Notes: generated by a model from the letters alone, not told the origin. A DNA stretch of 64,000 nt from Prevotella sp. (GCA_031285625.1 JAITVV010000006.1:36963-100962), one strand, 5' to 3'. Positions 15,084 to 45,006 are shown, counted from the first letter of the stretch. Numbers and translations are program-made.

Positions 15084-15101
15084 TATTAAAGACCCTATTT
15101 T

Positions 15102-19444: not shown

Positions 19445-19455
19445 TATCTACAGTC

Positions 19456-21003: not shown

Positions 21004-21057
21004 AAAGTTATATGACGAATCTGAAAAAATATATTATCAACTTCTAAAGATATTGTT

Positions 21058-22593: not shown

Positions 22594-22625
22594 CAAACAA
22601 TATATTTAACTAAAAAAAGAATAGT

Positions 22626-24136: not shown

Positions 24137-24154
24137 TCGAATACGAATAATACT

Positions 24155-26367: not shown

Positions 26368-26425
26368 TTAAAGAAAAATAATTTATCTTATTTTAACATA
26401 TGCGGTTACCTTAAATTATAAAACT

Positions 26426-27481
26426 ATGAAAAACCTGTTATACATATTTTTAATTTCAAATGCTTTACTTATTTCATGTTCAGGATCTCTTACCAAAGTT
26501 TCAGAGGAAGATATCTCAGTGAGTGTGGATGACATAAATCGGCCAAACTTTATTACTCTGAATAATAATGTTGTAAATGATGGTAAATTTGATGATGTAA
26601 AGTGGCAATTACCGTCAGGCGAAATTATTGATTCATTACGTTCATTCACCACATATTTTCCTCAAAAAGGAGATTATAAAGTTCTGATACATTTTACAAA
26701 AGGAAATAAAAAGACTGTTGTTACAAAAAATATAACAATAGAATCGGATGATCCTTATTATTCTAAAGGCGAGGTTCTGGTTTGGAATGATGAGTTTGAT
26801 GGTAATAGTCTGAACGAAAACTGGTGGTTCAATGAAACAGATATTCATGTAAATGATGAGTGGCAGATATATACTCCCGGTAAAAATATCAATATATCGG
26901 ATGGAATATTGACTATCACAGCTAAAAAGGAAGGTGAAGGACAGAAGTATGGGGATTATACTTCGGGCCGTCTTAACACTGAGGGGAAAAAAGAATTTCT
27001 GTATGGACGCATGGAAATCAGAGCAAAGTTGCCGGACGGAAGGGGAACATGGCCTGCCATATGGATGCTAGGTAAAGAACTGAGAACAATTGACTGGCCT
27101 GCATGTGGTGAAATAGATATTATGGAACATGTAGGTTATGATCCGAAAGTTATTAATTCGGCACTGCACACTACATCCAGTTGGGGAGCAACTCTCAACT
27201 CGGGGAAGACTACTATAGATACTTACGATTCTGATTTTCATATCTATGGGCTAAACTGGACAGCAGATAAACTGGACTTTTATGTAGATTCTCCAGATAA
27301 TATATTCTATACATATAATCCTATAATAAAAAATAAGGATACATGGCCTTTTGATCAACCATTCTTCTTTATTCTCAACTTTGCAGTCGGTGGCGGTTGG
27401 GGTGGAAAAGAAGGTGTAGATGATACAATATTTCCGCGTAATATGTATGTAGATTATGTGCGGGTATTTCAACCAAAATGA
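26426..27481 (+). CDS. GH16 laminarinase-like lipoprotein with PKD-like N-domain
   Basis: Lipobox LISC; VWNDEFDG, YTSGRL, GTWPAIWM, catalytic EIDIME, VDYVRV. Confidence 0.9.
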   Translation: MKNLLYIFLISNALLISCSGSLTKVSEEDISVSVDDINRPNFITLNNNVVNDGKFDDVKWQLPSGEIIDSLRSFTTYFPQKGDYKVLIHFTKGNKKTVVTKNITIESDDPYYSKGEVLVWNDEFDGNSLNENWWFNETDIHVNDEWQIYTPGKNINISDGILTITAKKEGEGQKYGDYTSGRLNTEGKKEFLYGRMEIRAKLPDGRGTWPAIWMLGKELRTIDWPACGEIDIMEHVGYDPKVINSALHTTSSWGATLNSGKTTIDTYDSDFHIYGLNWTADKLDFYVDSPDNIFYTYNPIIKNKDTWPFDQPFFFILNFAVGGGWGGKEGVDDTIFPRNMYVDYVRVFQPK

Positions 27482-27527
27482 TAACTGTTAAATTTTAAAA
27501 GTCGCTTCATAACTATATTAATTATTG

Positions 27528-27594
27528 GCAATAAAAATCCATTATATATGCATTTTTTATCCATTTAGTATTTGCCTTAATTTCAGTATGTTTA
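27528..27594 (+). promoter_or_regulatory. Tandem direct-repeat operator + -7 box upstream of susC3 (putative AraC site)
   Basis: GCAATAAAAATCCATT (27528-43) and GCATTTTTTATCCATT (27550-65), 22-bp period; TATGTTTA at 27587-94. Confidence 0.7.
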
Positions 27595-27625
27595 CTATTG
27601 TTAAACTATTATAAATCTAACTAGT

Positions 27626-30600
27626 ATGAAAATTTTCTTTTTTAAGAGGATCGCTATATTCATAGCGGTGCTAGCTATCTCTGTTGGAATTTTTTCGCAA
27701 GTAAATCCGGGCCAGGTATCTGGACTTGTAACTGATGGTGAAGAAAATCCACTAATAGGAGTAAGTATAAAGGTGAAGGGCACAAAGACCGGTACAGTAT
27801 CGGATTTTGATGGCAGGTATCAGATCAATATTTCCAGCGAAGCGGATGTGTTGATTTTTTCTTATGTTGGGTTTGCTCCCAAAGAAATAACGGTTGGTAA
27901 TAACAAAACTTTGAATGTAGTATTACAAGATGAACACAATGCGCTTGATGAGGTTGTGGTTACAGCTTTGGGGATCAAGCGTGAAAAAAAGGCTTTAGGT
28001 TATGCTGTACAAGATATCAAGGGAGACGTACTTACCGAAGTACGTGATCCTAATATGTTGAATTCTCTGGCCGGACAGGTAGCTGGGGTACAGATATCTA
28101 ATTCAGCGTCGGGGGGGCTCGGTGGCTCTCCTAAAATATCTATTCGTGGAGATATATCTTTTACGAATAGTGCTCCTCTTTTTGTAATAGATGGAGTACC
28201 ACTAAATAATAACTCCAGTAACTATAATACCGATGGGATGGATTTTGGTAGTGGTGCTGCTGATATTAATCCCGATGATGTGGAGTCTATGAGTGTTCTT
28301 AAAGGACCTACAGCTGCTGCATTATATGGTAGCCGTGCAGCAAATGGAGCTGTCGTGATTACAACAAAAAGCGGGAAAAAGAATAAAGGCTTAGGTATTA
28401 CTTATAATTCCAACCTGGTTATTCAACCACGATTATTAAGAACTCCAAATTATCAGTATAAATATGGTGCAGGTGAGAACTTTGAATATTCATATGTTGA
28501 TGGTAACGGAGGAGGAATAAATGATGGAGCTGGATATTGCTGGGGACCTAAATTAAATCAACTTGATCCAAGTACTGCAAGTGGTTTTGTAGAAATACCC
28601 CAATTTGCCAGTCCGATAGATCCGGTAACAGGAGCGCGTATAGCTATTCCGTGGGTAGCACATAAGAATTTTCTGGAAGATTTTTTTGAAACGGGAACCG
28701 TATTCACTAATAATGTATCAATTAGTAATGCCAACGAAAATGGAAGTTTCCGCCTTTCGTATACAAATCTCGATCAAAAAGGCATAATGCCTAATACCGA
28801 TCTTCAACGTAATACTGTTTCTCTTAGTGCAGGGTATAATCTTGCCAAATTCCTACGTGTAAATGCGAACGTTAATTATGTACAAAATAAGAGTGATAAT
28901 ATGCCTCAGTTGAATTATTGGGACAAGCCTATAATGTACACATTTATGTGGTGGGGAATGAATGAGGATGTAAAAGCTCTGAGAAATTATTGGACTCCGG
29001 GAAAAGAAGGGTTGGAACAGACCAATTATAACAATTCGTGGATGGATAATCCTTACTTTACATTGTATGAGAATACCCAATCACAACTAAAGAACCATCT
29101 ATATGGTAATGTGTCATTTACGCTAGATATAATAGATGGGCTTTCGTTGATGGGAAGAACGGGAACAGACTGGTATGATGATAATATACGTATAAGACGT
29201 GCCTATAGTTCGAGAAATTACCCCAATGGTATGTATGCTGTGAATAATTATATATTCCAGGAGCGAAATAGTGATTTCCTTCTCACATGGGATAAACCAA
29301 ATGAATCGAACTTTCAGTATAAAATATCATTCGGAGGTAATATGATGCGTCGCTCGATACGTAAAACCGCAGCAAAAGCCCTTGAACTGGAAATCCCAGG
29401 TATATATAATCTGGAAAATGCCAGATCTACACCTACATTAAATGAAGAAAATCAGGAAAAAGCCATTAACAGTTTGTATGGTATGGGACAACTGGTTTAC
29501 AAGAACATGCTATATCTGGATGTTACTGCCCGAAACGACTGGTCGAGTACATTGCCTCTCAACAATAACTCTTATTTCTACCCGTCTGTTTCTTTGAGTG
29601 GCTTGATTTCAGAGATGGTAACTTTACCTAAAGCAGTATCTTTTCTCAAGTTGAGAGGATCATGGGCACAGGTAGGTAATGATACAGACCCATACAAATT
29701 AGTGAACGTTTATCAGTTTGGTGGAAAATGGGGAAGTACAAGTTCCGCTTATGAGGGTGGTGGACTATTGAATTCATTGCTGAAACCTGAGAAGATAAAC
29801 AGTATTGAGTTTGGTGCGGACTTGCGCTTTTTGGGAGACCGGATAGGTCTTGATGTAGCGTATTATAATACAATTGCTACCAATCAGATATTGAATATGT
29901 CCATTGCTCCTAGCTCGGGTTATGATTCTAGAATGATAAATGCCGGAAAAATAGAGAGTCGTGGTTTTGAAGTTGTTCTGAATGCTACCCCTCTTCGTTT
30001 CAAAGATTTTGAATGGAATATGACACTCAACTGGTCTACAAATCGTGCGTATGTTCGCGAATTGGCAGATGGATTGGATACTTATGATATGGGATATAAT
30101 GCTCAGGCCAGAGTAGGTGGACGTATGGGTGACCTTTATGGCTGGGGCTTTAAGCATGCACCTGATGGACAGATGATTTATGGTGAAGATGGCTTACCTG
30201 TATGGGAAGATGAAATCAAGTGTTATGGTAATTATAATCCGGACTGGATGGCAGGATTGAAAAATTCATTTACATTCAAAAATTTCAGATTGTCGGCATT
30301 ACTCGATTACAGAAAAGGTGGACGCATTTTTTCAGGCACTTTGTCCAAAGGTATGGAAGGTGGTGTACTGGCAGAATCCGCTATTGGTAATCAACGAGAA
30401 GAAGGTCTCATCGGTGATGGCGTAATCGCTACGTACGATGCAGAAGGAAATGTTACCGGATACAGAAAAAATGATGTAAGGGTCAGTCTTCGCGACTGGA
30501 TAGGAAGATATCATAGTAGAGATTCATTCGAAACGAATAGTTATGATGCTTCTTATCTCAAACTGCGGGAAATAGGGCTTTCATATACTTTTCCTCAGAT

Positions 30601-30775
30601 CAAAATATCGGAAAACTATTCATTACGTAATGTGACCATAGGTGTTACGGGGCGTAATCTATGGATGTGGTCGAAAGCAAAACATATCGATCCCGAATCC
30701 GGAGGGTTTGGTTATGAGGATGTTCAGATACCTACACCTAAGAGTATAGGTTTCAATCTAAGTGTCTCTTTCTGA
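27626..30775 (+). CDS. SusC/RagA TonB-dependent transporter (no STN domain)
   Basis: LDEVVVTALGIKRE, DVESMSVLKGPTAAALYGSRA, RNDWSSTLP, terminal F. Confidence 0.96.
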   Translation: MKIFFFKRIAIFIAVLAISVGIFSQVNPGQVSGLVTDGEENPLIGVSIKVKGTKTGTVSDFDGRYQINISSEADVLIFSYVGFAPKEITVGNNKTLNVVLQDEHNALDEVVVTALGIKREKKALGYAVQDIKGDVLTEVRDPNMLNSLAGQVAGVQISNSASGGLGGSPKISIRGDISFTNSAPLFVIDGVPLNNNSSNYNTDGMDFGSGAADINPDDVESMSVLKGPTAAALYGSRAANGAVVITTKSGKKNKGLGITYNSNLVIQPRLLRTPNYQYKYGAGENFEYSYVDGNGGGINDGAGYCWGPKLNQLDPSTASGFVEIPQFASPIDPVTGARIAIPWVAHKNFLEDFFETGTVFTNNVSISNANENGSFRLSYTNLDQKGIMPNTDLQRNTVSLSAGYNLAKFLRVNANVNYVQNKSDNMPQLNYWDKPIMYTFMWWGMNEDVKALRNYWTPGKEGLEQTNYNNSWMDNPYFTLYENTQSQLKNHLYGNVSFTLDIIDGLSLMGRTGTDWYDDNIRIRRAYSSRNYPNGMYAVNNYIFQERNSDFLLTWDKPNESNFQYKISFGGNMMRRSIRKTAAKALELEIPGIYNLENARSTPTLNEENQEKAINSLYGMGQLVYKNMLYLDVTARNDWSSTLPLNNNSYFYPSVSLSGLISEMVTLPKAVSFLKLRGSWAQVGNDTDPYKLVNVYQFGGKWGSTSSAYEGGGLLNSLLKPEKINSIEFGADLRFLGDRIGLDVAYYNTIATNQILNMSIAPSSGYDSRMINAGKIESRGFEVVLNATPLRFKDFEWNMTLNWSTNRAYVRELADGLDTYDMGYNAQARVGGRMGDLYGWGFKHAPDGQMIYGEDGLPVWEDEIKCYGNYNPDWMAGLKNSFTFKNFRLSALLDYRKGGRIFSGTLSKGMEGGVLAESAIGNQREEGLIGDGVIATYDAEGNVTGYRKNDVRVSLRDWIGRYHSRDSFETNSYDASYLKLREIGLSYTFPQIKISENYSLRNVTIGVTGRNLWMWSKAKHIDPESGGFGYEDVQIPTPKSIGFNLSVSF

Positions 30776-30804
30776 TAAAGTAGCTATTTTAAATTTGAAA
30801 CATT

Positions 30805-32226
30805 ATGAAAAATTTTATATATATAATCGCTTTATTGCTATTTATGGGGGCTTGTACGAAGGATTTCGAAGACATAAACACCAATAAGAACAAGCCGGAA
30901 ACTATTATTCCTGACCTTTTACTAACATACCTGACATATCAAACTGTTGATACAGGACCTCAGGGTAGTGTAGTTACACAGCATTTAGCTGCGCGTGACT
31001 GGGTTGTTGGTCTGGGTAGATACGACTGGTGGGGAACTCCGTACTGGGATTACCCAAATTTACGGAATGCAAATAATCTTATTATTGAAGCCGAAAATAT
31101 GGGGAATGATAATTTTAAGGGAATAGGACTTATATTTAAAACATTCTTATTTTCCCGAACTACCGATTGTGTCGGTGATATTCCATTTAGTGAGGCTCTC
31201 AAAGGTAAAGAAGGGATCTATATGGCGAAGTATGATACTCAAGAAGAGGTGTATAAGGGTTTGTTGGCCTATCTTGATGAAGCTAATGACCTGATAGACG
31301 TCAATGGAACTTCTATTTCAGGGGATATTCTTTATGGAGGAGATTTACTGAAATGGAAAAAATTTGCCAATTCTCTTCATTTACGTTTGTTAATGAGAGT
31401 TTCAGAAAAAATGCCTGATGCAAAGGCAAAAATAAAGGCAATTGTGGATAATCCGGAAAAATACCCTATATTTGAAAGTAACGACGATATGGCCGCCTTG
31501 ACTTACCTTCCTGATGCGCCAAACAGATATCCGAACTATAATGCTGCGGGATACGATGCGGGTGAAGTAGTACTGGGTAAACCGCTTGCCGATACATTGT
31601 TGAACTATAATGATCCGCGTATAGCAAAAATGGCACAACCAACTATGGCATCTGTTAATGGTGGTACAGTTGAGTTTGTTGGAGTACCTTGTGGAATGAC
31701 TAAAGATGAGGCTTTGTCATATAACGGGGGACGCGAATATCAGTCACTTGTAAATGCTCGCTATAGCCATGACCCTGTTGGCGAAAAAGGTATTTTTATG
31801 TCTTATGCCGAACTCCAGTTTATCCTTGCTGAAGCAGCTCAAAAGGGATGGATCGGTGGAAGCGCCAAGGTTTATTATGAAAATGGGATAAGAAGCTCTT
31901 TCGAGTATTATGGGGTATCTGCAGATGTCGATAGTTACTTAACTGGTTCAAAAGTTACCTATAATCCGGCCAATGGTCTTTTACAAATTGGTGTACAAAA
32001 GTGGATTTCTTTCTATTTCAACTCCGGTTATGAATCATACTTTGACTATCGGCGTACTAAAATCCCATATCTGTTTCCGGGAACCGGAAACCTGAACGGC
32101 GGAAAGATTCCTGTACGATGGAAATATCCTGATTCGGAACAGAATTTAAATGGAAATAATTTTAAAGAAGCGATCGAAAGACAGGGAGCAGACAATATTA
32201 ATACTGCTATTTGGCTAACCAAGTAA
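30805..32226 (+). CDS. SusD-like lipoprotein
   Basis: Lipobox MGAC; GDIPFSEA, KWKKFANSLHLR, YAELQFILAEA, IGVQKWIS. Confidence 0.94.
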   Translation: MKNFIYIIALLLFMGACTKDFEDINTNKNKPETIIPDLLLTYLTYQTVDTGPQGSVVTQHLAARDWVVGLGRYDWWGTPYWDYPNLRNANNLIIEAENMGNDNFKGIGLIFKTFLFSRTTDCVGDIPFSEALKGKEGIYMAKYDTQEEVYKGLLAYLDEANDLIDVNGTSISGDILYGGDLLKWKKFANSLHLRLLMRVSEKMPDAKAKIKAIVDNPEKYPIFESNDDMAALTYLPDAPNRYPNYNAAGYDAGEVVLGKPLADTLLNYNDPRIAKMAQPTMASVNGGTVEFVGVPCGMTKDEALSYNGGREYQSLVNARYSHDPVGEKGIFMSYAELQFILAEAAQKGWIGGSAKVYYENGIRSSFEYYGVSADVDSYLTGSKVTYNPANGLLQIGVQKWISFYFNSGYESYFDYRRTKIPYLFPGTGNLNGGKIPVRWKYPDSEQNLNGNNFKEAIERQGADNINTAIWLTK

Positions 32227-32239
32227 CAACAACAGCAAA

Positions 32240-32274
32240 AGGAGAGGGTAACTAATCCCTCTCCTATGTTTTAT
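32240..32274 (+). terminator. Stem-loop after susD3 (attenuator/terminator)
   Basis: AGGAGAGGG-N8-CCCTCTCCT followed by ATGTTTTATT. Confidence 0.6.
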
Positions 32275-32296
32275 TAATGATTAAATATGGAATATA

Positions 32297-33217
32297 ATGC
32301 TTAACATTTACAAAGTCTTATTGAGTATTTCTCTTATTTTTTTAGTGTGTGCATGTAAAAATAATCAGTCAACTGCACCTGTAGAACTCAAAGTTATGAG
32401 TTTCAATATATGGGTAGGTGGAGGTAAGTCTATCGATGCTACAGGTAAAGTTTTTGCAGAAAGTAAAGCTGATATAATCGGTGTACAAGAGTCAACACGT
32501 AATGATAAAAATATTGCGGCTCAGTTGGCGGATAGTTTGGGATGGCATTCTTATGTATATGGACAGAGTACAGCAATAATAAGTAAATATCCGATAGTAG
32601 ATACCTCTGCGAACAAGCATGGTGTGAAAATCAAGATTGACGAAACTCATTTTGTATGGATGTTTAATATACATCTTATGTACTGTCCATACGAACCATA
32701 CCAATTGAATGGTATAGAATATTGTGGTGGGCCCATATTACAAACTGCAGAACAAGCTGTTGCTTCGGCTACTGCTACCAGAAGTAAAGAAGTAGAATCA
32801 ACTATTGCAGATATATTGGAAGTGGGAAAGGAAGGATTTCCTATCTTTCTTACAGGAGACTTTAATGAGCCTTCTTGTCTGGACTGGACGGTTAAGGCAG
32901 TAGAAGCAGGATTATGTAAAACTGCTGTGGAATGGCCTTCAACTAAAGCCTTTCTTAATAAGGGAGGTATGAAAGATTCGTACCGCATATCATATCCTGA
33001 CGAGGTAAAAAATCCCGGGCATACATGGACTCCACTACCGGAAACAACAGCATATAAGGAAGTCTTAGACCGTATCGACTTTGTTCTTTTCTCTGGAGAA
33101 AAAATAGAATTGAAAAACTCTGTTATCCTTGGGGAAGAGAGTTCTAAGAGTGATGTTGGCTTTAAAGATTATCCATCAGATCACAGAGCAGTAATGAGTA
33201 CTTTCATGCTGAAGTAA
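32297..33217 (+). CDS. Endonuclease/exonuclease/phosphatase (EEP) family lipoprotein
   Basis: Lipobox near VCAC; VMSFNIW, IGVQE, TGDFN, RIDFV, YPSDHRAV (full EEP catalytic set). Confidence 0.9.
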   Translation: MLNIYKVLLSISLIFLVCACKNNQSTAPVELKVMSFNIWVGGGKSIDATGKVFAESKADIIGVQESTRNDKNIAAQLADSLGWHSYVYGQSTAIISKYPIVDTSANKHGVKIKIDETHFVWMFNIHLMYCPYEPYQLNGIEYCGGPILQTAEQAVASATATRSKEVESTIADILEVGKEGFPIFLTGDFNEPSCLDWTVKAVEAGLCKTAVEWPSTKAFLNKGGMKDSYRISYPDEVKNPGHTWTPLPETTAYKEVLDRIDFVLFSGEKIELKNSVILGEESSKSDVGFKDYPSDHRAVMSTFMLK

Positions 33218-34112
33218 TTTTGCTTGACAGTTTGTTTACAACACGGTATCTGGCTGGAGAGGTACCCATCATTTTCTTGAAAAGCCGTGAGTAATAATAA
33301 GGATCGTCAAATCCTACCAGAATAGATATCTGATTGATCTTCATCGTGCTATTAAGCAAGTAATAGCACGATCGTTGTACTTTTAGTTGGTTGAAAAACT
33401 CCATTGGTGCAATACCCATATTTTTATAGAATAGTCTGTAAAAATATGAAACAGAATATCCAAAGTGTTCAGCTATATCCGATAGCTTTAACTTATTTCC
33501 TATATTTTCATTCATATAGTGTGTCGCCAGATGGATAAGTGAAGTCCCATACCGGTTCTCAGCTTTCGAATTTCTGTGAGTCTTTACATATAATATAGAG
33601 CCTAAGAAATATGCCAGGCCAAAGTTTGCATATTGTAATGCACCATCATCATGTGAATCAGATAAGACATTGTAAATATCTTCAAAAACTTTGAAGCGTT
33701 CATCAATACGCGAGTTATTTTCGGGATCGATAGATATTACTTTGCCATATATTTCAGAAAATAGTTTCGATTTGTATCCTTTGAAGTGTATCCAGTAAAT
33801 TGTCCAGGGATTAGTCTCATTTGCACCATAACGGTGAGCTGTATTAGCAGGAAGTATAATGAATTGATTTTCATTTACTGAATGTACTTTTCCATTTAGT
33901 TCAAACCATCCTCCTCCTTTGGTACAATAGATAAGAATATTTTCAGGACATCCTGTCGGTCTGTTTATATAGTGATATTTGGCAGAAGGAAAATATCCCA
34001 AAGAATGAAAGTAAATATCATTCATCATCGGATTTTTATCCATCTCCTCGACAATAAAATACGGTAATATAATGCTCCATTGTCCATGGAAACCGTGTTT
34101 GATCTGTGTCAT
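33204..34112 (-). CDS. AraC-family transcriptional regulator with cupin sensor domain
   Basis: LIYCTKGGG..HRYGA..PWTIYWIHF cupin; C-terminal GFDDPYYYSRLFKKMMGTSP HTH. Confidence 0.95.
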   Translation of the reverse strand: MTQIKHGFHGQWSIILPYFIVEEMDKNPMMNDIYFHSLGYFPSAKYHYINRPTGCPENILIYCTKGGGWFELNGKVHSVNENQFIILPANTAHRYGANETNPWTIYWIHFKGYKSKLFSEIYGKVISIDPENNSRIDERFKVFEDIYNVLSDSHDDGALQYANFGLAYFLGSILYVKTHRNSKAENRYGTSLIHLATHYMNENIGNKLKLSDIAEHFGYSVSYFYRLFYKNMGIAPMEFFNQLKVQRSCYYLLNSTMKINQISILVGFDDPYYYSRLFKKMMGTSPARYRVVNKLSSKITSA

Positions 34113-34144
34113 TTTAGGTTAGTTATTTGTCCCACGTAAAATTA

Positions 34145-34210
34145 GCAATAATAATCCATTTTTTATGAATGATTTATCCATTTTGTGAGCATAACAAATA
34201 TATAATTTTG
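34145..34210 (+). promoter_or_regulatory. Tandem direct-repeat operator + -7 box between divergent araC and the methyltransferase operon
   Basis: GCAATAATAATCCATT (34145-60) and GAATGATTTATCCATT (34167-82), 22-bp period; TAATTTTG at 34203-10. Confidence 0.72.
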
Positions 34211-34391
34211 TTAATACAACTTAACCATGGAAAATCGTGTGTCAGGGATGTAAAATATAGGTAATTAATTAATCCCTGATTACATCAAGATCAAAATAAA
34301 AACGAAATATACTTATACATTAATGAATTATCTAAATGTAAGGATTATCCAGTAATTCCCTTACAGGAAGCTAAATCTTACCTTAAAAATT

Positions 34392-35642
34392 ATGGCTACA
34401 TCAAAAAAACGTGTGCTGGATGCACTCAATCACAGAAACAGTGACCGTATTCCTGTCGATTTCGGCACTACCGGAGTCACGGGTATCCACTGTAAAGTTA
34501 TAGAGGGTCTTCGCCGTCATTACGGGCTGGCAGATCGACCCGTGAAAATTGTAGAACCTTTTCAGATGCTTGGCGAGGTTGACGAAGAACTGCAACAAAT
34601 TGTGCGCACAGACTGTGTTGGTATATATGGAAAAAAGGATATGTTTTCCATAGATGAATCGGAACTTCATGAACAGGTAACTCCATGGGGCCAACATGTG
34701 TTGATCGCCAGGGATATAGATCTTACTCCCGATAAGAATGGCGATGTATATATCTATGCAGAAGGAGACCGCTCATATCCTCCATGTGCAGTTATGCCGC
34801 AAGGGTGTTATTTTATCAATGCAATAGAGAGAGTTGATAATTATGATGAATCTAATATCAGACTTGAAGATAATACAGAAGAATATTCATATATCTCAGA
34901 TGAAGATTTAGATCATTTTACGAGCGAAATAGAAAAAGCTTCACACACCGAAAAAGCTATAATAGCCAGTTTTGGTGGAGCAGCTCTCGGTGATATTGCA
35001 TTTGTACCGGGTATGGGATTAAAGGATCCAAAGGGAATAAGAAGTGTAGCCGAATGGTATATGTCTACTGCTTTGCGTCCCGAATTTATCCACCGGATAT
35101 TTGATAAACAAATAGATATTGCAATTGAGAATTACAAAAAACTATGGGATAGGGTAGGGAGTAAAGTAGATGTTGTCTTTACTTGTGGTGCTGATTTCGG
35201 TACACAAGAATCTCAATTCTGTTCAGCGGCTTCATTCAATGAATTATGGGTTCCTCACTATAAGAGGATGAACGATTGGATACATGAGAATACAACATGG
35301 AAAGTATTCAAGCATTGCTGTGGTTCTATTATTCCTTTGATTCCTTCCCTGATAGAAGCAGGATTTGATATTCTCAATCCTGTGCAGATAAATGCAAAAG
35401 ATATGGATTCTCACCGCCTGAAATCTGAATTTGGAGACCATCTTACATTTTGGGGTGGAGGTATTGATACCCAAAAGGTACTGCCAAAAGGTACTCCTGA
35501 AGAAGTGAAACGACATGTATTAGGACAATGTGAAATCTTTGGTAAAGATGGTGGATTTGTATTCACCTCCGTACACAATATACAGGCAAATGCCCCGATA
35601 GAAAATGTAGCAGCTATGTTTGATGCTTTAAATACAATATAA
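34392..35642 (+). CDS. UroD/MtaA-superfamily TIM-barrel protein, putative corrinoid methyltransferase
   Basis: RVLDALNH..DRIPVDFG, DFGTQ, FKHCCG, GFDILNPVQ, FWGGGIDTQ, GGFVFTSVHNIQ; adjacent to a corrinoid protein. Confidence 0.8.
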   Translation: MATSKKRVLDALNHRNSDRIPVDFGTTGVTGIHCKVIEGLRRHYGLADRPVKIVEPFQMLGEVDEELQQIVRTDCVGIYGKKDMFSIDESELHEQVTPWGQHVLIARDIDLTPDKNGDVYIYAEGDRSYPPCAVMPQGCYFINAIERVDNYDESNIRLEDNTEEYSYISDEDLDHFTSEIEKASHTEKAIIASFGGAALGDIAFVPGMGLKDPKGIRSVAEWYMSTALRPEFIHRIFDKQIDIAIENYKKLWDRVGSKVDVVFTCGADFGTQESQFCSAASFNELWVPHYKRMNDWIHENTTWKVFKHCCGSIIPLIPSLIEAGFDILNPVQINAKDMDSHRLKSEFGDHLTFWGGGIDTQKVLPKGTPEEVKRHVLGQCEIFGKDGGFVFTSVHNIQANAPIENVAAMFDALNTI

Positions 35643-35649
35643 AACAGAT

Positions 35650-36285
35650 ATGGAAAATTTAAATAATATATACGAAGCTGTATTAAAAGGTAATTTGCCT
35701 TTAGCCGTAGAATCAGCGCAAAAGGCTATCACAGAAAATGTAGATCCTCAGATAATAATCAATGATTATATGTCGAAGGCTATGGAGGAGATCGGTTCCC
35801 GGTTCGAATCTGGTCAGGCATTTGTCCCGGAATTGTTAATGTCGGCGCGTGCCATGAAAGGAGCACTTGATCTGCTGAAACCTCTGTTGGCGAATAATTC
35901 TTCTGCAAGTCTGGGTAAAGTAGTAATAGGTACTGTAAAGGGAGATCTGCACGATATTGGCAAAAACCTTGTAGCATCCATGTTGGAAGGTTGTGGTTTT
36001 GATGTGATAAATCTGGGTGTAGATATTTCTTCCGAAAAGTTTGTGCAGGCTGTAAAAGAGCATAATGCAAATATTGTTTGTCTGTCGGCACTACTGACCA
36101 CTACCATGAACTATATGAAAGAAATTGTAATTGCCTTGGAAAAGGAAGGCTTGCGTAATAATGTTAAGATTATGATTGGTGGAGCGCCTATCAGTTCTGA
36201 ATTTGCAAATGAAATAAATGCTGATGGATATAGTGATAATGCAAATTCTGCCGTAAATCTGGCAAAACAATTAATTGCTTCTTAA
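35650..36285 (+). CDS. Cobalamin-binding corrinoid protein (MtaC/MtbC/MttC-like)
   Basis: Cap domain (FVPELLMSARAM) plus base-off His-on motif GDLHDIGKNLV..SALLTTT..IGGAP. Confidence 0.93.
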   Translation: MENLNNIYEAVLKGNLPLAVESAQKAITENVDPQIIINDYMSKAMEEIGSRFESGQAFVPELLMSARAMKGALDLLKPLLANNSSASLGKVVIGTVKGDLHDIGKNLVASMLEGCGFDVINLGVDISSEKFVQAVKEHNANIVCLSALLTTTMNYMKEIVIALEKEGLRNNVKIMIGGAPISSEFANEINADGYSDNANSAVNLAKQLIAS

Positions 36286-36295
36286 ATCTGATACT

Positions 36296-36982
36296 ATGAA
36301 ATCATCTTCAATTCCTTTTTTAGATTTGAATCTGAGCAAACAGTATGTTCTGGAAGAGATGGGGTATGGTACTGTTACTCCTGATCATGCTGTGACAGCT
36401 ATCTTGGATGAATTTTTTAAATTACTCGAAAAAGAGGTTGTGACAGAATATATTTTTAATATGTATGAAGGGCAAATGGGTGATGGTAAGATCATATTTG
36501 GTAATACTTGCCTTGGTGCTGGGAATACAATTACCTCTCTTCTGAAAAACTCGGTAAAATATGTCATTTTTGCAGCTACTGCAGGACCTCATTTTGATAA
36601 AAGAATGCAACAGGTAAAGGCAGGGGATGATATGCTCAGAACCTATATACTGGATGCTATCGGGACTTGTATAGTCGAAAAGACAGGAGATATTATGGAA
36701 ATGCATATTAAGCAGGAGATTAATGGGCTCAATCATACTAATCGCTTCAGTCCCGGTTATTGTGGCTGGCCATTAACTGATCAGAGAAATCTGTTTCAGT
36801 TAATAGGTGGGAGGCCTTGTGGAATCACCTTATCTGAAGTCTGTCTTATGCATCCCATTAAATCGATAAGTGGTATAATGGGTATAGGTCAGAATGTAAA
36901 TCAGAAACTATATGGATGTAACTTTTGTGAATTGGAAACTTGTTATAAACGAAAAAAACTTAAAACCCGAGCTACTGTATGA
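36296..36982 (+). CDS. Stand-alone MetH (methionine synthase) SAM-dependent reactivation-domain protein
   Basis: FAATAG, LDAIGT..VE, RFSPGYCGW, MHPIKSISG, C-terminal CNFCELETC; ATG 36296 preferred over the TTG at 36275 that overlaps the upstream gene. Confidence 0.8.
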   Translation: MKSSSIPFLDLNLSKQYVLEEMGYGTVTPDHAVTAILDEFFKLLEKEVVTEYIFNMYEGQMGDGKIIFGNTCLGAGNTITSLLKNSVKYVIFAATAGPHFDKRMQQVKAGDDMLRTYILDAIGTCIVEKTGDIMEMHIKQEINGLNHTNRFSPGYCGWPLTDQRNLFQLIGGRPCGITLSEVCLMHPIKSISGIMGIGQNVNQKLYGCNFCELETCYKRKKLKTRATV

Positions 36983-38004
36983 CTATGAATATGAAAGAAT
37001 GGATATCCCGGATAATAGAATCACCTGTGAGGATAGCCATCCCAATAATGACTCATCCTGGCATCGAATATCTGGGAAAGACAGTAAAAGAGGTTGTAAC
37101 TGATGGTACAGTCCACTTTGAAGCCATAAAGGCTTTGAATAATATGTATCCTCCGGCAGCTTGTACTGTTATCATGGATCTCACTGTGGAGGCGGAAGCT
37201 TTCGGAGCGGAAGTAGTTTTTCCCGAAAATGAAATTCCTACAGTTACAGGAAGGTTAGTATATGATATAGATTCTGTAAAAAATCTCGAAATACCGGATA
37301 TGACTAAAGGACGATTACCCGAATACATTTTAGCTAACAAGCTAACTGCTGAAAATATAAAAGATAAGCCGGTTTTTGGTGGTTGTATCGGTCCTTTTTC
37401 CTTAGCCGGACGTCTCTACGATATGTCTGAATTAATGATGGCATGCTATACAGAACCTGAAATAGCTAAATTGTTATTAGCAAAATGCGCTACATTCCTT
37501 AAGGATTATTGTACAGAACTGAAAAGGCAAGGTATTCAGGGTATCGTAATTGCAGAACCTGCAGCGGGATTACTTTCTAACGAGGGGTGTCAGGAATTTT
37601 CTTCTGAATATATAAAACCCATTGTGGAAGCTCTGCAGGATGACGAATTTATAATTATCCTCCATAACTGTGGAAATAAAGGACATTGTACAGACGCTAT
37701 GTTAAGCACGCAGGCCAAAGGATATCACTTTGGTAATATGATGAATATGGAATTGGCACTTGATCAATGTCCTGCAGATACTTTGGTATTAGGTAATCTT
37801 GATCCGGTAGGTGTATTCAAGAATGCTTCTGTAGAACAAATGGAATCGGAGGTATTTGGCTTATTGGATAAAACCAGGTTACATCCCAATTTTGTATTAT
37901 CTTCCGGATGTGATATACCACCACATATACCATTAGAAAATATAGAAGCTTTTTACCGGGCATTGGACAAATTCAACGAACAATCATCGCAAATAGTTAA
38001 ATAG
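36979..38004 (+). CDS. MtaA/MtbA-like methylcobamide:thiol methyltransferase (UroD family)
   Basis: MDLTVEAEAFGA, GPFSLA, AEPAA, Zn ligands ILHNCG and LSSGCDI, GNLDP; ATGA overlap with upstream gene. Confidence 0.85.
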   Translation: MTMNMKEWISRIIESPVRIAIPIMTHPGIEYLGKTVKEVVTDGTVHFEAIKALNNMYPPAACTVIMDLTVEAEAFGAEVVFPENEIPTVTGRLVYDIDSVKNLEIPDMTKGRLPEYILANKLTAENIKDKPVFGGCIGPFSLAGRLYDMSELMMACYTEPEIAKLLLAKCATFLKDYCTELKRQGIQGIVIAEPAAGLLSNEGCQEFSSEYIKPIVEALQDDEFIIILHNCGNKGHCTDAMLSTQAKGYHFGNMMNMELALDQCPADTLVLGNLDPVGVFKNASVEQMESEVFGLLDKTRLHPNFVLSSGCDIPPHIPLENIEAFYRALDKFNEQSSQIVK

Positions 38005-38070
38005 CAAATATTGTCCATTCTTTTGGCAAAATTAGTCTATCTTTTTTATAGTCGAAATTGATTATTTTTG
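38004..38070 (+). promoter_or_regulatory. Tandem direct-repeat operator + -7 box upstream of the Gfo/Idh/MocA gene
   Basis: GCAAATATTGTCCATT (38004-19) and GCAAAATTAGTCTATC (38026-41), 22-bp period; TATTTTTG at 38063-70. Confidence 0.65.
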
Positions 38071-38197
38071 TTTTGATAGTATTATGAAAAGCTAACTAAG
38101 ATTCACAAACAAGGTACTACAATCTGAGACCTTAATTATCCATGATTTTTATATTAAATTTCTTTAGTATACAACTGTAAATAAAATAAGACAAGAA

Positions 38198-39388
38198 ATG
38201 GATCGTAAACAATTTATTTCCCGATTAGGTACAATAGGCGCTGCAGCAGTTGCTGCTCCTATTATTGGTACATCATCATTAGAGGCTGCAGTATCATCCA
38301 CAAATAATACAACTCTTTCATCAAATAAAATCCGTGTAGGTGTTATTGGATGTGGTAGCGTATCAGGCATGTATTTGCCACATTTAACCAAATGTCCGTA
38401 TGCCGAGGTTGTAAGTGTATGCGATATTATACCACAAAAAGCGCAGGATGCTGCAAAAAAATACAATGTAAAAAACTGGTATCCTCACATAGATAAAATG
38501 CTGGCTGGTGTGCCTTTCGATCTGCTTGTAAATCTTACCGATATGCAGGAACATGGTCGGTTGAATCGTCTGGCCCTGATGAAGAAGGTTAATGTGTGGA
38601 GCGAGAAACCTATGGCAAATACCTATGATGAAGGTCGCGAATTGTACGAACTGGCTAAAGTTCAAGGAGTACGTATATGGGGTGCACCGGCAATTGTAAA
38701 TAGCCCTCAGTTTGCTTTTATGGCAAAACAAATCAATGAAGGCAATCTGGGACGCATTGCAGCAGCGCATGCTCATTATGGACATCAGGGGCCTAATTGG
38801 TCTGCATTTTTCTTCGAAGAGGGAGGAGGCAGCTTGCCGGATTTGGGTGTATACAACATATCTACATTGACCGGTTTATTCGGGCCGGCTAAATCTATTG
38901 TAGCCATGACTAATGTGGTAGATCCTACACGCAATACAGGAAATAAAGGACATATACAGGTCGTGGCCGAAGATAATGCTATGATTATTATGGAACATCA
39001 GAATAATATACTTTCTCATATTCAATGCGGGTTCAACTATTTTGATCCGTATGGCCATGAAGGTACGGGACAGGAACGTCCTACAATATCTGTTGTAGGT
39101 TCTACCGGAAATATGCACATGATTGGTTACGATTGGAAACCATTCGGTGTAGATATGGCTACGATGGCAAATGAGAAAACTCAACGTTTTGCTACTGATC
39201 CAGGTACATTCCTATGGGAAGAAGGGGCTTCTGCAATATGTGAATCCATGGTTACCGGAAAGGAATCTTTGATCAATGCAGAACATGCATTACATGTATT
39301 GGAAATTATTGAAGCAGCGCGTCTGTCGCAAAAAGAAGGTAAAAGAGTTTCGTTAAGATCTTCTTTCAAATGGCCGGTTGTGATATAG
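38198..39388 (+). CDS. Gfo/Idh/MocA oxidoreductase with Tat-like leader
   Basis: DRKQFI leader; VIGCGSVS, WSEKPMA, GGGSLPDLGVY, HVLEIIEAA. Confidence 0.88.
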   Translation: MDRKQFISRLGTIGAAAVAAPIIGTSSLEAAVSSTNNTTLSSNKIRVGVIGCGSVSGMYLPHLTKCPYAEVVSVCDIIPQKAQDAAKKYNVKNWYPHIDKMLAGVPFDLLVNLTDMQEHGRLNRLALMKKVNVWSEKPMANTYDEGRELYELAKVQGVRIWGAPAIVNSPQFAFMAKQINEGNLGRIAAAHAHYGHQGPNWSAFFFEEGGGSLPDLGVYNISTLTGLFGPAKSIVAMTNVVDPTRNTGNKGHIQVVAEDNAMIIMEHQNNILSHIQCGFNYFDPYGHEGTGQERPTISVVGSTGNMHMIGYDWKPFGVDMATMANEKTQRFATDPGTFLWEEGASAICESMVTGKESLINAEHALHVLEIIEAARLSQKEGKRVSLRSSFKWPVVI

Positions 39389-39422
39389 TGCACTAATATA
39401 TAAATATATAACTATTTTTTGT

Positions 39423-39722
39423 TTGTTATTGTGGTGGTACATCTTTGGGGCCAGAAGTCCAATATTACCAGTCTGATCCCAAGATGGCCCACAATGACAA
39501 TAAGGGAAAAGATAAGAAGGGTAGATCTAAATAAGGATGAGAACGATTGTAGCCAAATAATGTAAAAAGGTTGGTTTAATGAGTAGAATTATTGGTAGAG
39601 ATAACTTATCTCTGTTAGGCTTCAATCAGGATATTCTCATCTCAAGGTCTTGAGTTGGAATCTAAAGTAGAAACTTCGGCTAGAGTAGCAGCTACTGGAG
39701 TTTCTACTGGATTCTTGCCAAC
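39423..39722 (+). other. Highly structured intergenic element (candidate ncRNA or element remnant)
   Basis: Three long stems (39423-39500; 39536-39554 with 39618-39641; 39654-39722); mismatches in the two outer hairpin helices are G-U compatible on the + strand. Confidence 0.4.
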
Positions 39723-39758
39723 ATTTATTTAGGTTGATAAATAAAACCGAATGCTTTC

Positions 39759-39766
39759 TATATTTG
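39759..39766 (+). promoter_or_regulatory. Bacteroidetes -7 promoter box for the DUF1080 operon
   Basis: TATATTTG about 50 nt upstream of ATG 39816. Confidence 0.5.
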
Positions 39767-39815
39767 TTAGAAAAGGATGAAATGTAGTATATAAATAAAT
39801 CGAAATAAAAGAGTT

Positions 39816-40610
39816 ATGAAAAAGATTTCTTATTTCTTATTAACTTCTGCCGCTATGTTACTATTTGCGTGTGGGGGTAAAAAAGCAGAACAATCTTCTT
39901 CTGAAGGAGAAAAAAATGCAGACCCGATGGTCTTGTATGGAGAAATAGACCGTACATCAGTACCAAATACTATTACTGAAGCCGAAAAGTCGAAAGGATG
40001 GCAATTGCTGTTTGACGGGACAACAGCCAATGGCTGGCATGGCTATAATCTGAAAGGGGTTCCGGATTGCTGGGCTATAGAAGATGGGGCTTTAACAATG
40101 AAAAGTGTAGGTGCTCAGGAAGAAGAGCAAGATCTTCTTACAAACAAGGAATACAAAAAATTTGCACTATCTTTAGAATATAAGATGACAAAAGGAGCAA
40201 ACAGTGGTATTGTATTCCAAATAAAAGAAGATCCTAAATATAGATTTGCATACGAAACAGGACCTGAATTTCAGGTTATTGATCACGAAAACTGGCATGA
40301 AAAACTGGAAGACTGGCAGATAAACGGAGGAAATTATGCTATGTATCCGCCAATCGCAAAACCTTATAAAGCTATAGGTGAATGGAACCAGCTGATGTTG
40401 GTTGTAAATGGTAATGATGTAACTCAGATTTTGAATGGGGAGGTAACGGTTAAGTATACAAAATATTCAGATGAATGGACAAAACTCCGCAATAGTGGGA
40501 AATGGTCTGCTTTTCCTGATTATGGAAAATATGATGAGGGTTATATCTCGCTACAGAACCATGGTACAAAAGTTTGGTACAGAAATATTATGATTAAAGA
40601 ACTAAAATAA
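39816..40610 (+). CDS. DUF1080 (3-keto-disaccharide hydrolase/lyase family) lipoprotein
   Basis: Lipobox LFAC; LLFDG..GW, ANSGIVF, GPEFQVID, GYISLQNHG..YRNIMIKEL. Confidence 0.9.
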   Translation: MKKISYFLLTSAAMLLFACGGKKAEQSSSEGEKNADPMVLYGEIDRTSVPNTITEAEKSKGWQLLFDGTTANGWHGYNLKGVPDCWAIEDGALTMKSVGAQEEEQDLLTNKEYKKFALSLEYKMTKGANSGIVFQIKEDPKYRFAYETGPEFQVIDHENWHEKLEDWQINGGNYAMYPPIAKPYKAIGEWNQLMLVVNGNDVTQILNGEVTVKYTKYSDEWTKLRNSGKWSAFPDYGKYDEGYISLQNHGTKVWYRNIMIKELK

Positions 40611-40618
40611 TTTATCAT

Positions 40619-42097
40619 ATGACTACTCGTAGAAATTTTCTAAAAAAATCTGCAATAGCTGCTGCAGGTTTATATATATTCCCGTCCAATGTTATCAGCG
40701 GATTGGGACATAAAGCCCCAAGTGATAAACTAAACATTGTCGGTGTTGGTATCGGAGGTAAAGGACACCCTAACCTAGTAGGTATGAATACTGAAAATAT
40801 TATTGGGCTTTGTGATGTGGATTGGGCCTATGCAAAGAGTTGCTTTAATGAGTTTCCTAAAGCAAAGCGATACAAAGACTGGCGCAAGATGTTTGATGAA
40901 CTTGGAAAAGAAATAGATGGAGTAATGGTGTCTACGCCGGACCATACACATGCTATAATAGCAGCAACCGCATTGACAATGGGTAAACATGTATATTGTC
41001 AGAAACCTTTGACACATTCTATATACGAAAGCCGTTTGCTGACACGCCTGGCTGCCAAGTATAAAGTAGCTACACAAATGGGTAATCAGGGTAATTCAGG
41101 AGATGGTGTACGCCAGGTTTGCGAATGGATATGGAATGGTGAAATAGGTGAAATACGCGAAGTGCATGCATGGACAGACCGTCCGATATGGCCTCAGGGA
41201 CTACAACGCCCTAAAGAAGTGGTAAAAGTACCATCGACGTTAGACTGGGATAATTTTATCGGGCCTGCTTCGTTTCGTCCTTATAACCCTGTATACACCC
41301 CTTGGAACTGGCGCGGATGGTGGGATTTCGGAACAGGTGCTTTTGGAGATATGGCTTGTCATGTACTCGATCCTATCTATCAGGCATTAAAACTTGGGTA
41401 TCCTACTAAAGTGCAAGGTAGCTCATCCTTAATTAATACAGAATCTCCACCTCAAAGCGAGAAGGTAGAATTTACATTCCCGGCACGGGATAATATGCCA
41501 AAAGTAGCCATGCCGGAGGTGAAGATATATTGGTATGATGGCGGATTATTCCCTAATCGTCCCGATCTTCTTCCTGATGGAACAGATCTTATGCGTGATG
41601 GCCTTGGTGGATGTATTTTTGTTGGTTCTAAAGATACTATGATCACCGACTGTGGTGGATTCAATCCTCGCCTGTTGTCTGGTCGTGTTCCGAATGTACC
41701 TCAGACTCTGCGCCGGGTGCCTGGTGCAACAGGTTATACTGATGGCTATCATGAGCAGGACTGGATAAGGGCATGTAAGGAATCTCCTGAAAACAGAGTG
41801 GAGACAACCAGTAATTTCGCATATTCAGGACCATTCAATGAAATGGTTTTGCTCGGAGTCCTTGCTATACGTATGCAGAGCCTGAATAAAATTCTGAGAT
41901 GGGATGGCGATAATATGAAATTTACAAATATAGGAGCAAATGAAGAATTGAGAGTCGTTTCTAAAGACGCTTTCTGGGTTAAAGACGGACACCCTCATTT
42001 CGAACGGGAATATACAACATCGAACGCCCAGGCATCTGTTGCTGAATATATAAAACACACATACAGAAGTGGCTGGTCTTTACCTGCAATGCCTTAA
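40619..42097 (+). CDS. Tat-exported Gfo/Idh/MocA oxidoreductase (glycoside 3-dehydrogenase-like)
   Basis: TRRNFLK Tat motif; APSDKLNI, STPDHTH, YCQKPL, WRGWWDFGTGAFGDMACH; paralogue of 21058. Confidence 0.9.
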   Translation: MTTRRNFLKKSAIAAAGLYIFPSNVISGLGHKAPSDKLNIVGVGIGGKGHPNLVGMNTENIIGLCDVDWAYAKSCFNEFPKAKRYKDWRKMFDELGKEIDGVMVSTPDHTHAIIAATALTMGKHVYCQKPLTHSIYESRLLTRLAAKYKVATQMGNQGNSGDGVRQVCEWIWNGEIGEIREVHAWTDRPIWPQGLQRPKEVVKVPSTLDWDNFIGPASFRPYNPVYTPWNWRGWWDFGTGAFGDMACHVLDPIYQALKLGYPTKVQGSSSLINTESPPQSEKVEFTFPARDNMPKVAMPEVKIYWYDGGLFPNRPDLLPDGTDLMRDGLGGCIFVGSKDTMITDCGGFNPRLLSGRVPNVPQTLRRVPGATGYTDGYHEQDWIRACKESPENRVETTSNFAYSGPFNEMVLLGVLAIRMQSLNKILRWDGDNMKFTNIGANEELRVVSKDAFWVKDGHPHFEREYTTSNAQASVAEYIKHTYRSGWSLPAMP

Positions 42098-42107
42098 AGG
42101 TGTATTC

Positions 42108-42145
42108 AAGGGGAGTGCGTACGGGGTTTTAAGCACTCCCTTTAT
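42108..42145 (+). terminator. Stem-loop after the oxidoreductase
   Basis: AAGGGGAGTGC-N14-GCACTCCCTTT. Confidence 0.55.
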
Positions 42146-42177
42146 CCATTGATTGTTCATCCTTAATCTTATAGAAT

Positions 42178-42993
42178 ATGAAATACATTAAGTTATTGAT
42201 ATTACCTTTTATCCTATGTCTTATTGCATGCACTGGCGAGCCAGAGAAGCCTGATTGGAAATTAGGAATGCAAACATATACTTTCCACAAATTCACATTA
42301 ATGGAAACCCTTGATAAATCGAAAGATCTCGGTATCCACTATGCTGAAGCCTTCTTTTTCCAGTCGCTGGGAACTAATTTCGCCGATTCTGCATATCTCA
42401 ATTATGATATATCCGAAGATGTGAAGAAGCAGTTGAAAGAAGAGTTTGCTAAACGGGATATTACTTTATACGCATTTGGTGTAGCATTCTATGATACTAC
42501 CGATGAGTGGGAGCATTTCTTTAGCTTCGCTAAGGATATGGGTATCCATATTGTAACGTGCGAACCAAAACTCGAACATCTTGATTTTGTAGAACAACTA
42601 GCCTTGAAATATAATATACAAGTAGCTATACATAACCATCCTGATCCATCTGTATATGCAGATCCCAAAGTATTAGAGAAAGCACTTGAAGGCCGCAATC
42701 AAATAATGGGTGTATGTGCCGATATTGGACATTGGAAAAGGACAGGTAACGATCCTATAGCGACTCTTAAGAAGTTTGAAGGCCGGATAAAAGTAGTGCA
42801 TATCAAGGATTTGAGTGAAAAGCTGGAAGATACAACCTGGGGTACCGGAATTCTGCAAGTGAAAGAGGTCTTGGCTGAATTGAAAAGACAAAAATTTGAT
42901 GGACTTGTATCTATTGAATATGAAAACTTCGGAGATTCGCAACTTGATGATATAAAGAAAAGTTTGGAATATTATAACCTGAATCTAAAGTAA
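42178..42993 (+). CDS. Sugar phosphate isomerase/epimerase (xylose-isomerase-like TIM barrel) lipoprotein
   Basis: Lipobox LIAC; AIHNH, CADIGHW, VHIKD, SIEYE metal motifs. Confidence 0.87.
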   Translation: MKYIKLLILPFILCLIACTGEPEKPDWKLGMQTYTFHKFTLMETLDKSKDLGIHYAEAFFFQSLGTNFADSAYLNYDISEDVKKQLKEEFAKRDITLYAFGVAFYDTTDEWEHFFSFAKDMGIHIVTCEPKLEHLDFVEQLALKYNIQVAIHNHPDPSVYADPKVLEKALEGRNQIMGVCADIGHWKRTGNDPIATLKKFEGRIKVVHIKDLSEKLEDTTWGTGILQVKEVLAELKRQKFDGLVSIEYENFGDSQLDDIKKSLEYYNLNLK

Positions 42994-42999
42994 TTTAAA

Positions 43000-44982: not shown

Positions 44983-45006
44983 ATTGCAAATACATATTAT
45001 CACCTA

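Follow-up and report, generated by a model that had tools for sequence, protein, structure and literature searches.

What joins an outer-membrane importer, a set of corrinoid methyltransferases and an oxidative glycoside pathway that lie one after another in the genome of a bacterium recorded as Prevotella sp.? The question arises from a 64,000-nucleotide stretch of DNA (GCA_031285625.1 JAITVV010000006.1:36963-100962; hereafter the window, with positions counted from its first letter), in which a preliminary description had noticed the same 16-bp tandem repeat in front of three predicted promoters. That description assigned the repeats to the AraC-type regulator encoded at 33204-34112 and took the genes behind them to form one regulon. 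Because the repeat travels with the neighbouring araC gene across related bacteria, it is very probable that the three 38-bp repeats are the operators of this regulator, a protein with a cupin domain and a double helix-turn-helix (HTH) domain. Support for the assignment is comparative, and comes from the co-occurrence of motif and araC, the position of the motif close to the araC start codon across genera, the constant spacing between repeat and promoter box, a footprint-like conservation profile and a split operon that carries a copy of the repeat on each piece. The three predicted operator sites are:

27528..27565, plus strand: operator site 1, half-sites 27528-27543 and 27550-27565 with a 6-bp spacer, upstream of susC
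34145..34182, plus strand: operator site 2, half-sites 34145-34160 and 34167-34182, in the divergent araC / methyltransferase region
38004..38041, plus strand: operator site 3, half-sites 38004-38019 and 38026-38041, before the gene for a GFO/IDH/MocA oxidoreductase (GFO)

Each of the three sites is a 38-bp tandem repeat of two 16-bp half-sites. The coordinates and letters given earlier for the six half-sites are correct to the base, as is the 22-bp period, which is found also at 14 sites from other genomes. Conservation within the half-site falls into two blocks, GCA (positions 1-3) and TC(C/T)AT (positions 11-15), which lie about one helical turn apart with A/T-rich bases between them; the motif can be written as GCA-N7-TCCAT, twice.

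These are the only such sites in the 4.84-Mb genome, which was scanned in full (4,843,028 bp in 96 contigs, 37.0% G+C). The half-site pattern proposed at the outset, GCAWWWWWWRTCCATT, has exactly four exact matches in the window, all within the three operator sites, and seven genome-wide on both strands, so that four of the seven fall inside this 10.5-kb span; 1.1 (order 0) to 2.0 (order 1) would be expected per genome and 0.0044 in the span. The other three exact matches (contigs C33, C35 and C61) are absent from the listed tandem pairs. A degenerate 38-bp pattern, expected 3.4e-4 times per genome, was found three times (sites 1 and 3 exactly, site 2 with one mismatch). A tandem-pair matrix built from the six half-sites scores the three sites at 37.1-39.8 bits, with the next best pair in the genome at 20.9. 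This matrix is circular, being trained on the sites that it scores, and two non-circular tests were therefore added. When each pair was left out in turn, site 1 scored 33.2 (next 20.9) and site 2 scored 31.6 (next 21.2). With a matrix made only from the 14 sites of other genomes, the window sites rank first to third genome-wide (36.7, 36.2 and 36.1; next 20.8), and with one made from the five sites of other genera alone they rank 1, 2 and 5.

Beyond this genome, a closely similar 38-bp pattern gave 14 matches in 9 of 35 genomes of the genus Dysgonomonas, compared with one match for the control. Across the order the search was null: 400 other genomes, a sample that left out the distant motif-bearing genera found through AraC homologues, held three matches with at most one mismatch and four for the reversed control, which sets the background at about 0.01 per genome. 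The scans of genome, genus and order thus show that the motif is not equally frequent in random AT-rich intergenic DNA, a possibility that the preliminary description had itself raised. Two further candidates were taken as chance matches: a possible fourth site at C30:70349 (about 20-21 bits), which has no -7 box at the expected distance, and a one-mismatch match in the Dysgonomonas genome G002, which lies inside a 384-residue open reading frame (ORF) on the other strand.

The regulator itself leads to the same sites. Orthologues of AraC occur in records titled Dysgonomonas, with 82% identity in D. mossii DSM 22836, and homologues of about 40-58% identity are spread across the Bacteroidales. 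Eighty loci from an AraC protein search were scanned for the tandem motif. It stands directly upstream of araC, pointing away from it, in loci L001-L003 (81-85% AraC identity), L004 (58%), L005-L007 (Parabacteroides, 45%) and L009 (Tannerella, 43%). Counting by eye in the window, L001 and L005 places the distal half-site 32-35 nucleotides away from the start codon of araC, and the motif holds the same position in the locus in L002-L004, L007 and L009, over an AraC identity of 85-43%. Within the genus, the motif is found beside araC in all six genomes whose araC orthologue is at least 80% identical (G000, which is the genome of the window, G005, G013, G015, G027 and G029). Two more genomes, G009 and G014, carry a 51-52% homologue 5.6 and 8.2 kb from the motif on the same contig, and none of the 26 motif-less genomes of the genus has an AraC homologue of at least 51%. 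In G014 there is also a second, weaker tandem site (L105, 3989-4026, minus strand, 25 bits), upstream of a ROK-like gene, which in turn precedes the gene for the 51% AraC homologue and shares its strand.

The protein has the parts that such a regulator would need. Its N-terminal cupin domain matches PF02311 (AraC_binding, E 9e-12, residues 46-112), with residues 59-154 matching the solved BgaR (6nwh), and its two AraC-type HTH units are matched by PF00165 in two stretches (E 1.5e-21) and by PF12833 (residues 200-290). Among solved structures the DNA-binding domain matches that of a hybrid two-component system (HTCS) protein best (12aw), and further those of AraC (2k9s), RamA and MarA. The score for the AraC equivalog NF007860, 97.4 bits, is below its cut-off of 208. 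Nine of 81 homologues have a distal half-site within 200 nucleotides of the gene, and these nine share invariant residues that are present in fewer than 20% of the other 72. In the first HTH, this set includes the Y and R of SYFYRLF, at positions that would correspond to the base-contacting ones of the MarA recognition helices. The 51-52% homologues of G009 and G014 keep this SYFYRLF helix, and the second HTH (DPYY.SR.FKK) is common to the motif-bearing and motif-less groups.

The genes behind the sites, called from an ORF listing together with Pfam and NCBIfam scans, are as follows:

27626-30775, plus strand: susC (TIGR04056, 666 bits), predicted target of site 1
30805-32226, plus strand: susD (PF12771), with susC the outer-membrane uptake pair (27626..32226)
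32297..33217, plus strand: endonuclease/exonuclease/phosphatase-family gene (PF03372)
33204..34112, minus strand: araC, cupin and double-HTH regulator of 302 residues (PF02311, PF00165, PF12833)
34392..38004, plus strand: corrinoid methyltransferase operon (Pfam/NCBIfam domains, all below the curated cut-offs of named equivalogs)
34392-35642, plus strand: MT1, URO-D-like methyltransferase
35650-36285, plus strand: corrinoid protein
36275-36982, plus strand: MetH-activation-domain protein
36979-38004, plus strand: MT2, MtaA-like
38198..44982, plus strand: 3-keto-glycoside-type operon, gene order kept behind the motif in relatives
38198-39388, plus strand: GFO/IDH/MocA oxidoreductase (GFO)
39816-40610, plus strand: 3-keto-disaccharide-hydrolase-domain protein (DUF1080; PF06439, E 3e-45)
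40619-42097, plus strand: BT_2158-family glycoside 3-dehydrogenase (NF058561, 888 bits against a cut-off of 750)
42178-42993, plus strand: TIM-barrel protein (PF01261)
43000-44982, plus strand: GH97 protein (GH97 domains), possible operon member

In relatives the sites precede the same kinds of genes in different combinations. D. mossii (G005, locus L003) has araC, one site and then GFO, hydrolase, dehydrogenase and TIM-barrel genes, with no methyltransferase operon; in G015 and G027 a site is followed by dehydrogenase and TIM-barrel genes, and in G009 and G014 by the whole four-gene operon. G029 has sites before MT1 and before GFO as in the window and none before susC. In G013 a site precedes susC, susD and the phosphatase gene (79, 78 and 73% identical), araC and a second site before GFO follow the phosphatase gene, and a third site, on another contig, precedes the hydrolase-dehydrogenase pair. 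This split operon, with a copy of the repeat on each piece, is the strongest argument for a regulon. Orthologous sites before the GFO gene are found in G005, G009, G013, G014 and G029. Overall, at least part of the 3-keto-glycoside operon lies behind the motif in all eight motif-bearing Dysgonomonas genomes, with a susCD site in two (G000 and G013) and an MT1 site in two (G000 and G029). The recurrent target in Dysgonomonas is therefore the 3-keto-glycoside operon, and the SusCD and corrinoid methyltransferase operons are variable members. The earlier view of transporter, methyltransferases and oxidoreductase as one system holds in that each of the three has a copy of the site in the window, and has to be narrowed in that, within Dysgonomonas, only the 3-keto-glycoside operon is a constant member. 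Outside the genus, the motif precedes MT1 genes in L004, L009 and L008 (an Alistipes locus).

Site 3 begins on the final base of the MT2 stop codon (38002-38004), which puts the methyltransferase operon flush against the next operator. Contigs in RNA runs X1 and X4 diverge from the window exactly at 38004, where they have loose ends, which points to a relative that has another gene in front of this operator. The RNA runs were consulted as Logan contigs; those of X1 and X2 are long and span many genes on both strands, and those of X3 are short.

The promoters predicted at the sites follow the consensus for Bacteroidota, TAnnTTTG at -7 and TTTG near -33, as given in an excerpt of PMC7366714. The corresponding boxes are:

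27587..27594, plus strand: -7-like box of the predicted susC promoter, TATGTTTA, a consensus match 21 nucleotides after site 1
34203..34210, plus strand: -7 box of the predicted methyltransferase-operon promoter, TAATTTTG, 20 nucleotides after site 2
38063..38070, plus strand: -7 box of the predicted GFO-operon promoter, TATTTTTG, 21 nucleotides after site 3
34137..34144, minus strand: -7-like box of the predicted araC promoter, TAATTTTA on the minus strand, abutting the distal half-site

The match to the -7 consensus is exact at sites 2 and 3, and the box at site 1 ends in A, not G; the distances of 21, 20 and 21 nucleotides between proximal half-site and box are as first reported. Of 17 distinct sites set in register by the motif, 15 have a TA..TTT[GA] box whose start lies 20 or 21 nucleotides beyond the proximal half-site. 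The two half-sites average 1.57 and 1.19 bits of information per column and the spacer 0.53; outside the repeat the mean is 0.32 upstream, 0.42 over the next 19 nucleotides downstream, 0.80 in the -7 box and 0.27 past it. The conservation profile is thus footprint-like, and the motif-to-box spacing is kept where spacers and flanks diverge. If the phylum consensus applies, the operator would span roughly -33 to -70, presumably the position of araI1-I2 in Escherichia coli. A sigma-70 promoter scan found 44 promoters against 49.7 expected, the model being uninformative for this phylum. An Rfam scan of 26000-45000 gave no match at E <= 1, so that the long 5' regions of MT1 and GFO contain no riboswitch or leader of a known family.

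With this in mind, we propose that the two HTH units of one AraC DNA-binding domain would read the GCA and TC(C/T)AT blocks, and that the 22-bp period would place both halves of a dimer on one face of the helix. The proximal half-site, ending 20-21 nucleotides before the -7 box, would abut or overlap the -33 region, which is the arrangement of araI1-I2 and of class II activators. According to this model, binding of a sugar or glycoside by the cupin domain would lead the dimer to recruit RNA polymerase and to switch on three units, namely susCD, the corrinoid methyltransferase operon and the GFO / 3-keto-glycoside operon. We infer binding by AraC, the sign of regulation and the response to an effector from the sequence; the sites, their uniqueness, conservation and fixed geometry, and their co-occurrence with araC are observed directly.

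Occupancy of site 2 may in addition control araC itself. On the araC strand, a -7-like box (in plus-strand reading [CT]AAAnnTA) is present in 7 of 10 araC-adjacent sites (all six of Dysgonomonas and L004) and in none of the seven sites that do not adjoin araC. The operator would cover the region directly upstream of this box, including the -33 region of araC. The regulator therefore probably acts on its own gene, as had been suggested earlier and as is now made more credible by a box that abuts the distal half-site only where araC adjoins; judged from this position, repression is the likelier sign.

Several observations are weak points of the pattern or weigh against this interpretation. Two of the six half-sites, those at 34167 and 38026, have two mismatches each to GCAWWWWWWRTCCATT, the other four being exact. 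Half-site matches with at most two mismatches number 18 in the window against 9.98 +/- 3.17 expected, a mild enrichment of about 1.8-fold that 2 of 100 shuffles reach. When left out of its own matrix, site 3 scores only 19.9 and ranks fourth, within a background of 19.4-20.7, so that support for this site rests on its orthologues. The compared genomes are kin, and the counts of co-occurrence are not independent events. The -7 boxes were recognized by consensus matching alone, with the final A of the site 1 box as a departure from it, and by regular expression 2 of the 17 sites have no box at the expected offset: the susC site of G013, where a box-like TAAATTCG can be seen by eye at offset 21, and the site of Parabacteroides gordonii (L007), which has none. 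In P. gordonii the araC-adjacent repeat, besides lacking a -7 box, faces a gene on araC's own strand, and the repeat there cannot be an activator site for a divergent operon. Lastly, the genome of the window encodes a paralogue of AraC with 41% identity (G000:C69:49951-50811).

Some of these points lend themselves to other explanations. The one that survives best, which we nevertheless hold to be improbable, is that AraC binds the sites mainly as a repressor or dual regulator and not as a class II-type activator. AraC-family proteins can both activate and repress, the site at the araC promoter would cover the stretch adjoining the opposite-strand -7-like box on its upstream side, where a bound protein would repress, and the P. 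gordonii site has no downstream -7 box. However, 15 of the 17 operators lie wholly upstream of the -7 box and leave both the box and the start point free, as an activator would, whereas the site of a repressor would be expected over or downstream of the box.

It is more doubtful still that a different regulator binds the repeats, be it the paralogue on contig C69 or another protein with an AraC-type domain, and that the adjacency to araC is incidental. In favour of this view, AraC-type DNA-binding domains are numerous in Bacteroidales, a paralogue is present in the same genome and 72 of the 81 sampled homologous loci have no motif beside the gene. Against it stand the position of the motif within about 35 nucleotides of the araC start codon across genera, the restriction of matches in the genus to genomes with an orthologue or a 51% homologue (bar one intragenic match), and the covariation of first-HTH residues with the motif.

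We give little credence to the idea that the three sites are alike through recent duplication of one promoter cassette, with no selection for binding of a factor. The abutment of site 3 on the MT2 stop codon, the X1/X4 contig that leaves the window exactly there and the rearrangements in relatives, which carry promoter and repeat together, would all fit such a history. Duplication would nonetheless have conserved the flanks equally, and in the window the spacers and the 20-21-nucleotide stretches between repeat and box differ where the GCA and TCCAT blocks are kept; in the alignment of 17 sites, drawn from several genera, the half-sites and the -7 box are the information-rich parts. Chance similarity in AT-rich intergenic DNA, for which only the 1.8-fold enrichment of the relaxed half-site pattern speaks, can be set aside as negligible, being already refuted by the four exact half-sites in the span, the three 38-bp matches, the scans of genome, genus and order, and the non-circular matrix.

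Operators of the cupin-AraC regulator, as we read the repeats, would have familiar counterparts. In E. coli, AraC binds at araI1-I2 of araBAD to direct-repeat half-sites about two helical turns apart, of which the proximal one reaches the upstream promoter element, and the regulator gene araC is divergent, with its promoter in the shared region. The system described here is similar in having two direct-repeat half-sites, a proximal one that would reach the upstream promoter element and a divergent regulator gene. The regulator resembles E. coli AraC (and also RhaS, RhaR, XylS and MelR) in combining a cupin ligand domain with a double HTH, gives a weak match to NF007860 (97 bits) and matches the solved AraC DNA-binding domain 2k9s. 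It differs in falling below the cut-off (97 versus 208 bits), and is not an orthologue; the period is 22 and not 21 bp, the predicted promoters follow the -33/-7 pattern of Bacteroidota, and no distal looping half-site was identified. A lone half-site with one mismatch lies inside susD (31352-31367, minus strand), 2.8 kb from site 2, and could be due to chance or be a distal looping site.

Closer in taxonomy are the direct repeats predicted for the AraC-type domains of Bacteroides HTCS proteins and for the AraC-family RhaR of B. thetaiotaomicron. According to excerpts of PMC3878776 and PMC3870299, these have a period of about 21 bp and consist of 12-16-bp sites, found by comparative genomics upstream of operons in polysaccharide utilization loci (PULs). 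The operators described here resemble them in being direct repeats of similar period, and the HTCS protein 12aw is the best solved match of the DNA-binding domain; unlike an HTCS, the regulator is a soluble one-component cupin-AraC protein. A second comparison is with the BT2156-59 cluster of B. thetaiotaomicron, which, according to an excerpt of PMC8121099, B. thetaiotaomicron requires to grow on trehalose and further disaccharides and whose proteins rise on trehalose. The cluster is controlled by BT2160, a SusR-family regulator (PMC3878776 and PMC8121099, in excerpt) with predicted repeats 67 or 77 bp apart (PMC3878776). Here too a BT_2158-family dehydrogenase, a DUF1080 hydrolase and a TIM-barrel protein are encoded in one operon. 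In contrast to the BT2156-BT2160 system, so far as the excerpts describe it, the regulator is a cupin-AraC protein with a 22-bp period and not of the SusR family, and the regulon also takes in SusCD and a corrinoid methyltransferase operon. The same type of pathway would thus be under a different class of regulator. In the literature covered, we did not find this regulator, its motif (GCA-N7-TCCAT, twice) or the regulon described; the supplementary motif tables of PMC3878776 and PMC3870299, which could hold a related motif, lay outside that coverage. Nor did the literature search find a corrinoid demethylase tied to a PUL in Bacteroidota; PMC4031174, as far as its excerpt goes, is about Sporomusa and not Dysgonomonas.

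The regulatory mechanism is conventional, and the regulon solid but conventional; it is the company that the operator keeps that bears on function. As non-coding evidence, the operator points to joint switching of three modules, the SusCD importer, the corrinoid methyltransferase set and the oxidative 3-keto-glycoside pathway. This limits where to look for the substrate of the methyltransferases, a family common in Bacteroidales for which sequence comparison gives no relative of solved structure. The domains of the methyltransferase operon are URO-D (twice), B12-binding and the Met_synt_B12 activation domain, every named equivalog staying below its cut-off. A sequence search with the URO-D-like MT1 (416 residues) found no solved relative at E <= 0.001. 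Among 8000 candidates scored, MT1 has at least 7594 relatives at E <= 1e-20, whose names go no further than 'uroporphyrinogen decarboxylase family' or 'methyltransferase', and its identity is 65-70% to proteins in Tannerella, Prevotellaceae and B. fragilis records. The Tannerella locus (L009, 1-9840) has a single set of corrinoid protein, activation protein and MT2 for two MT1 paralogues, each with an AraC gene next to it, as in the layout of modular O-demethylases.

From their predicted co-regulation with an oxidative glycoside pathway one may speculate that the methyltransferases act on a methylated glycoside. One may go further and take the AraC regulon as the mark of a Bacteroidales pathway for O-methylated glycosides that is so far undescribed, with the cupin-AraC protein sensing a methylated sugar or aglycone; we put this forward tentatively, as something that may well turn out otherwise. 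In such a pathway SusCD would import the substrate, the periplasmic set of GFO, glycoside 3-dehydrogenase, DUF1080 and TIM-barrel proteins would cleave it oxidatively, and the cytoplasmic B12-dependent MT1, corrinoid protein and MT2, with the MetH-type reactivation protein, would remove the methyl group. The regulator family would then be a general sensor set for corrinoid demethylase modules, since the same motif and AraC lineage precede MT1 genes in other genera. In view of those MT1 genes behind the motif outside the genus, either association of the motif, that with the 3-keto-glycoside operon or that with MT1, may be the older. A precise handle is offered by the 38-bp site, by the transcription starts predicted from it and by D. 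mossii, a relative that can be cultured and in which the locus has a single operator.

Some features of the neighbourhood complete the picture. Two of them flank the susCD pair:

26426-27481: GH16 gene
32240-32265, terminator-like on both strands: hairpin of 9 pairs (6 GC) with a T-rich tail after it, in the interval from susD to the phosphatase-family gene

The phosphatase-family gene (32297-33217) is an uncertain member of the regulon, because this hairpin separates it from susD and because in G005, G015 and G027 it stands beside araC without susCD. A matrix scan of the D. mossii locus found no motif before the gene. Within the 3-keto-glycoside operon, the 427-nucleotide gap between the GFO and hydrolase genes (39389-39815) holds no ORF of at least 50 residues and no Rfam match; its counterpart in D. 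mossii is about 80 nucleotides long. Directly upstream of the locus lies a PUL (14506-27481), with an extracytoplasmic function (ECF) sigma/anti-sigma pair, susCD, a second pair of GFO-type dehydrogenase and 3-keto-disaccharide hydrolase, a galactosamine-6-P isomerase, a ROK kinase, a major facilitator superfamily (MFS) transporter and the GH16 gene. In G013, counterparts of several of its genes directly follow the motif-controlled GFO gene, and the upstream PUL and the operator locus may serve one pathway.

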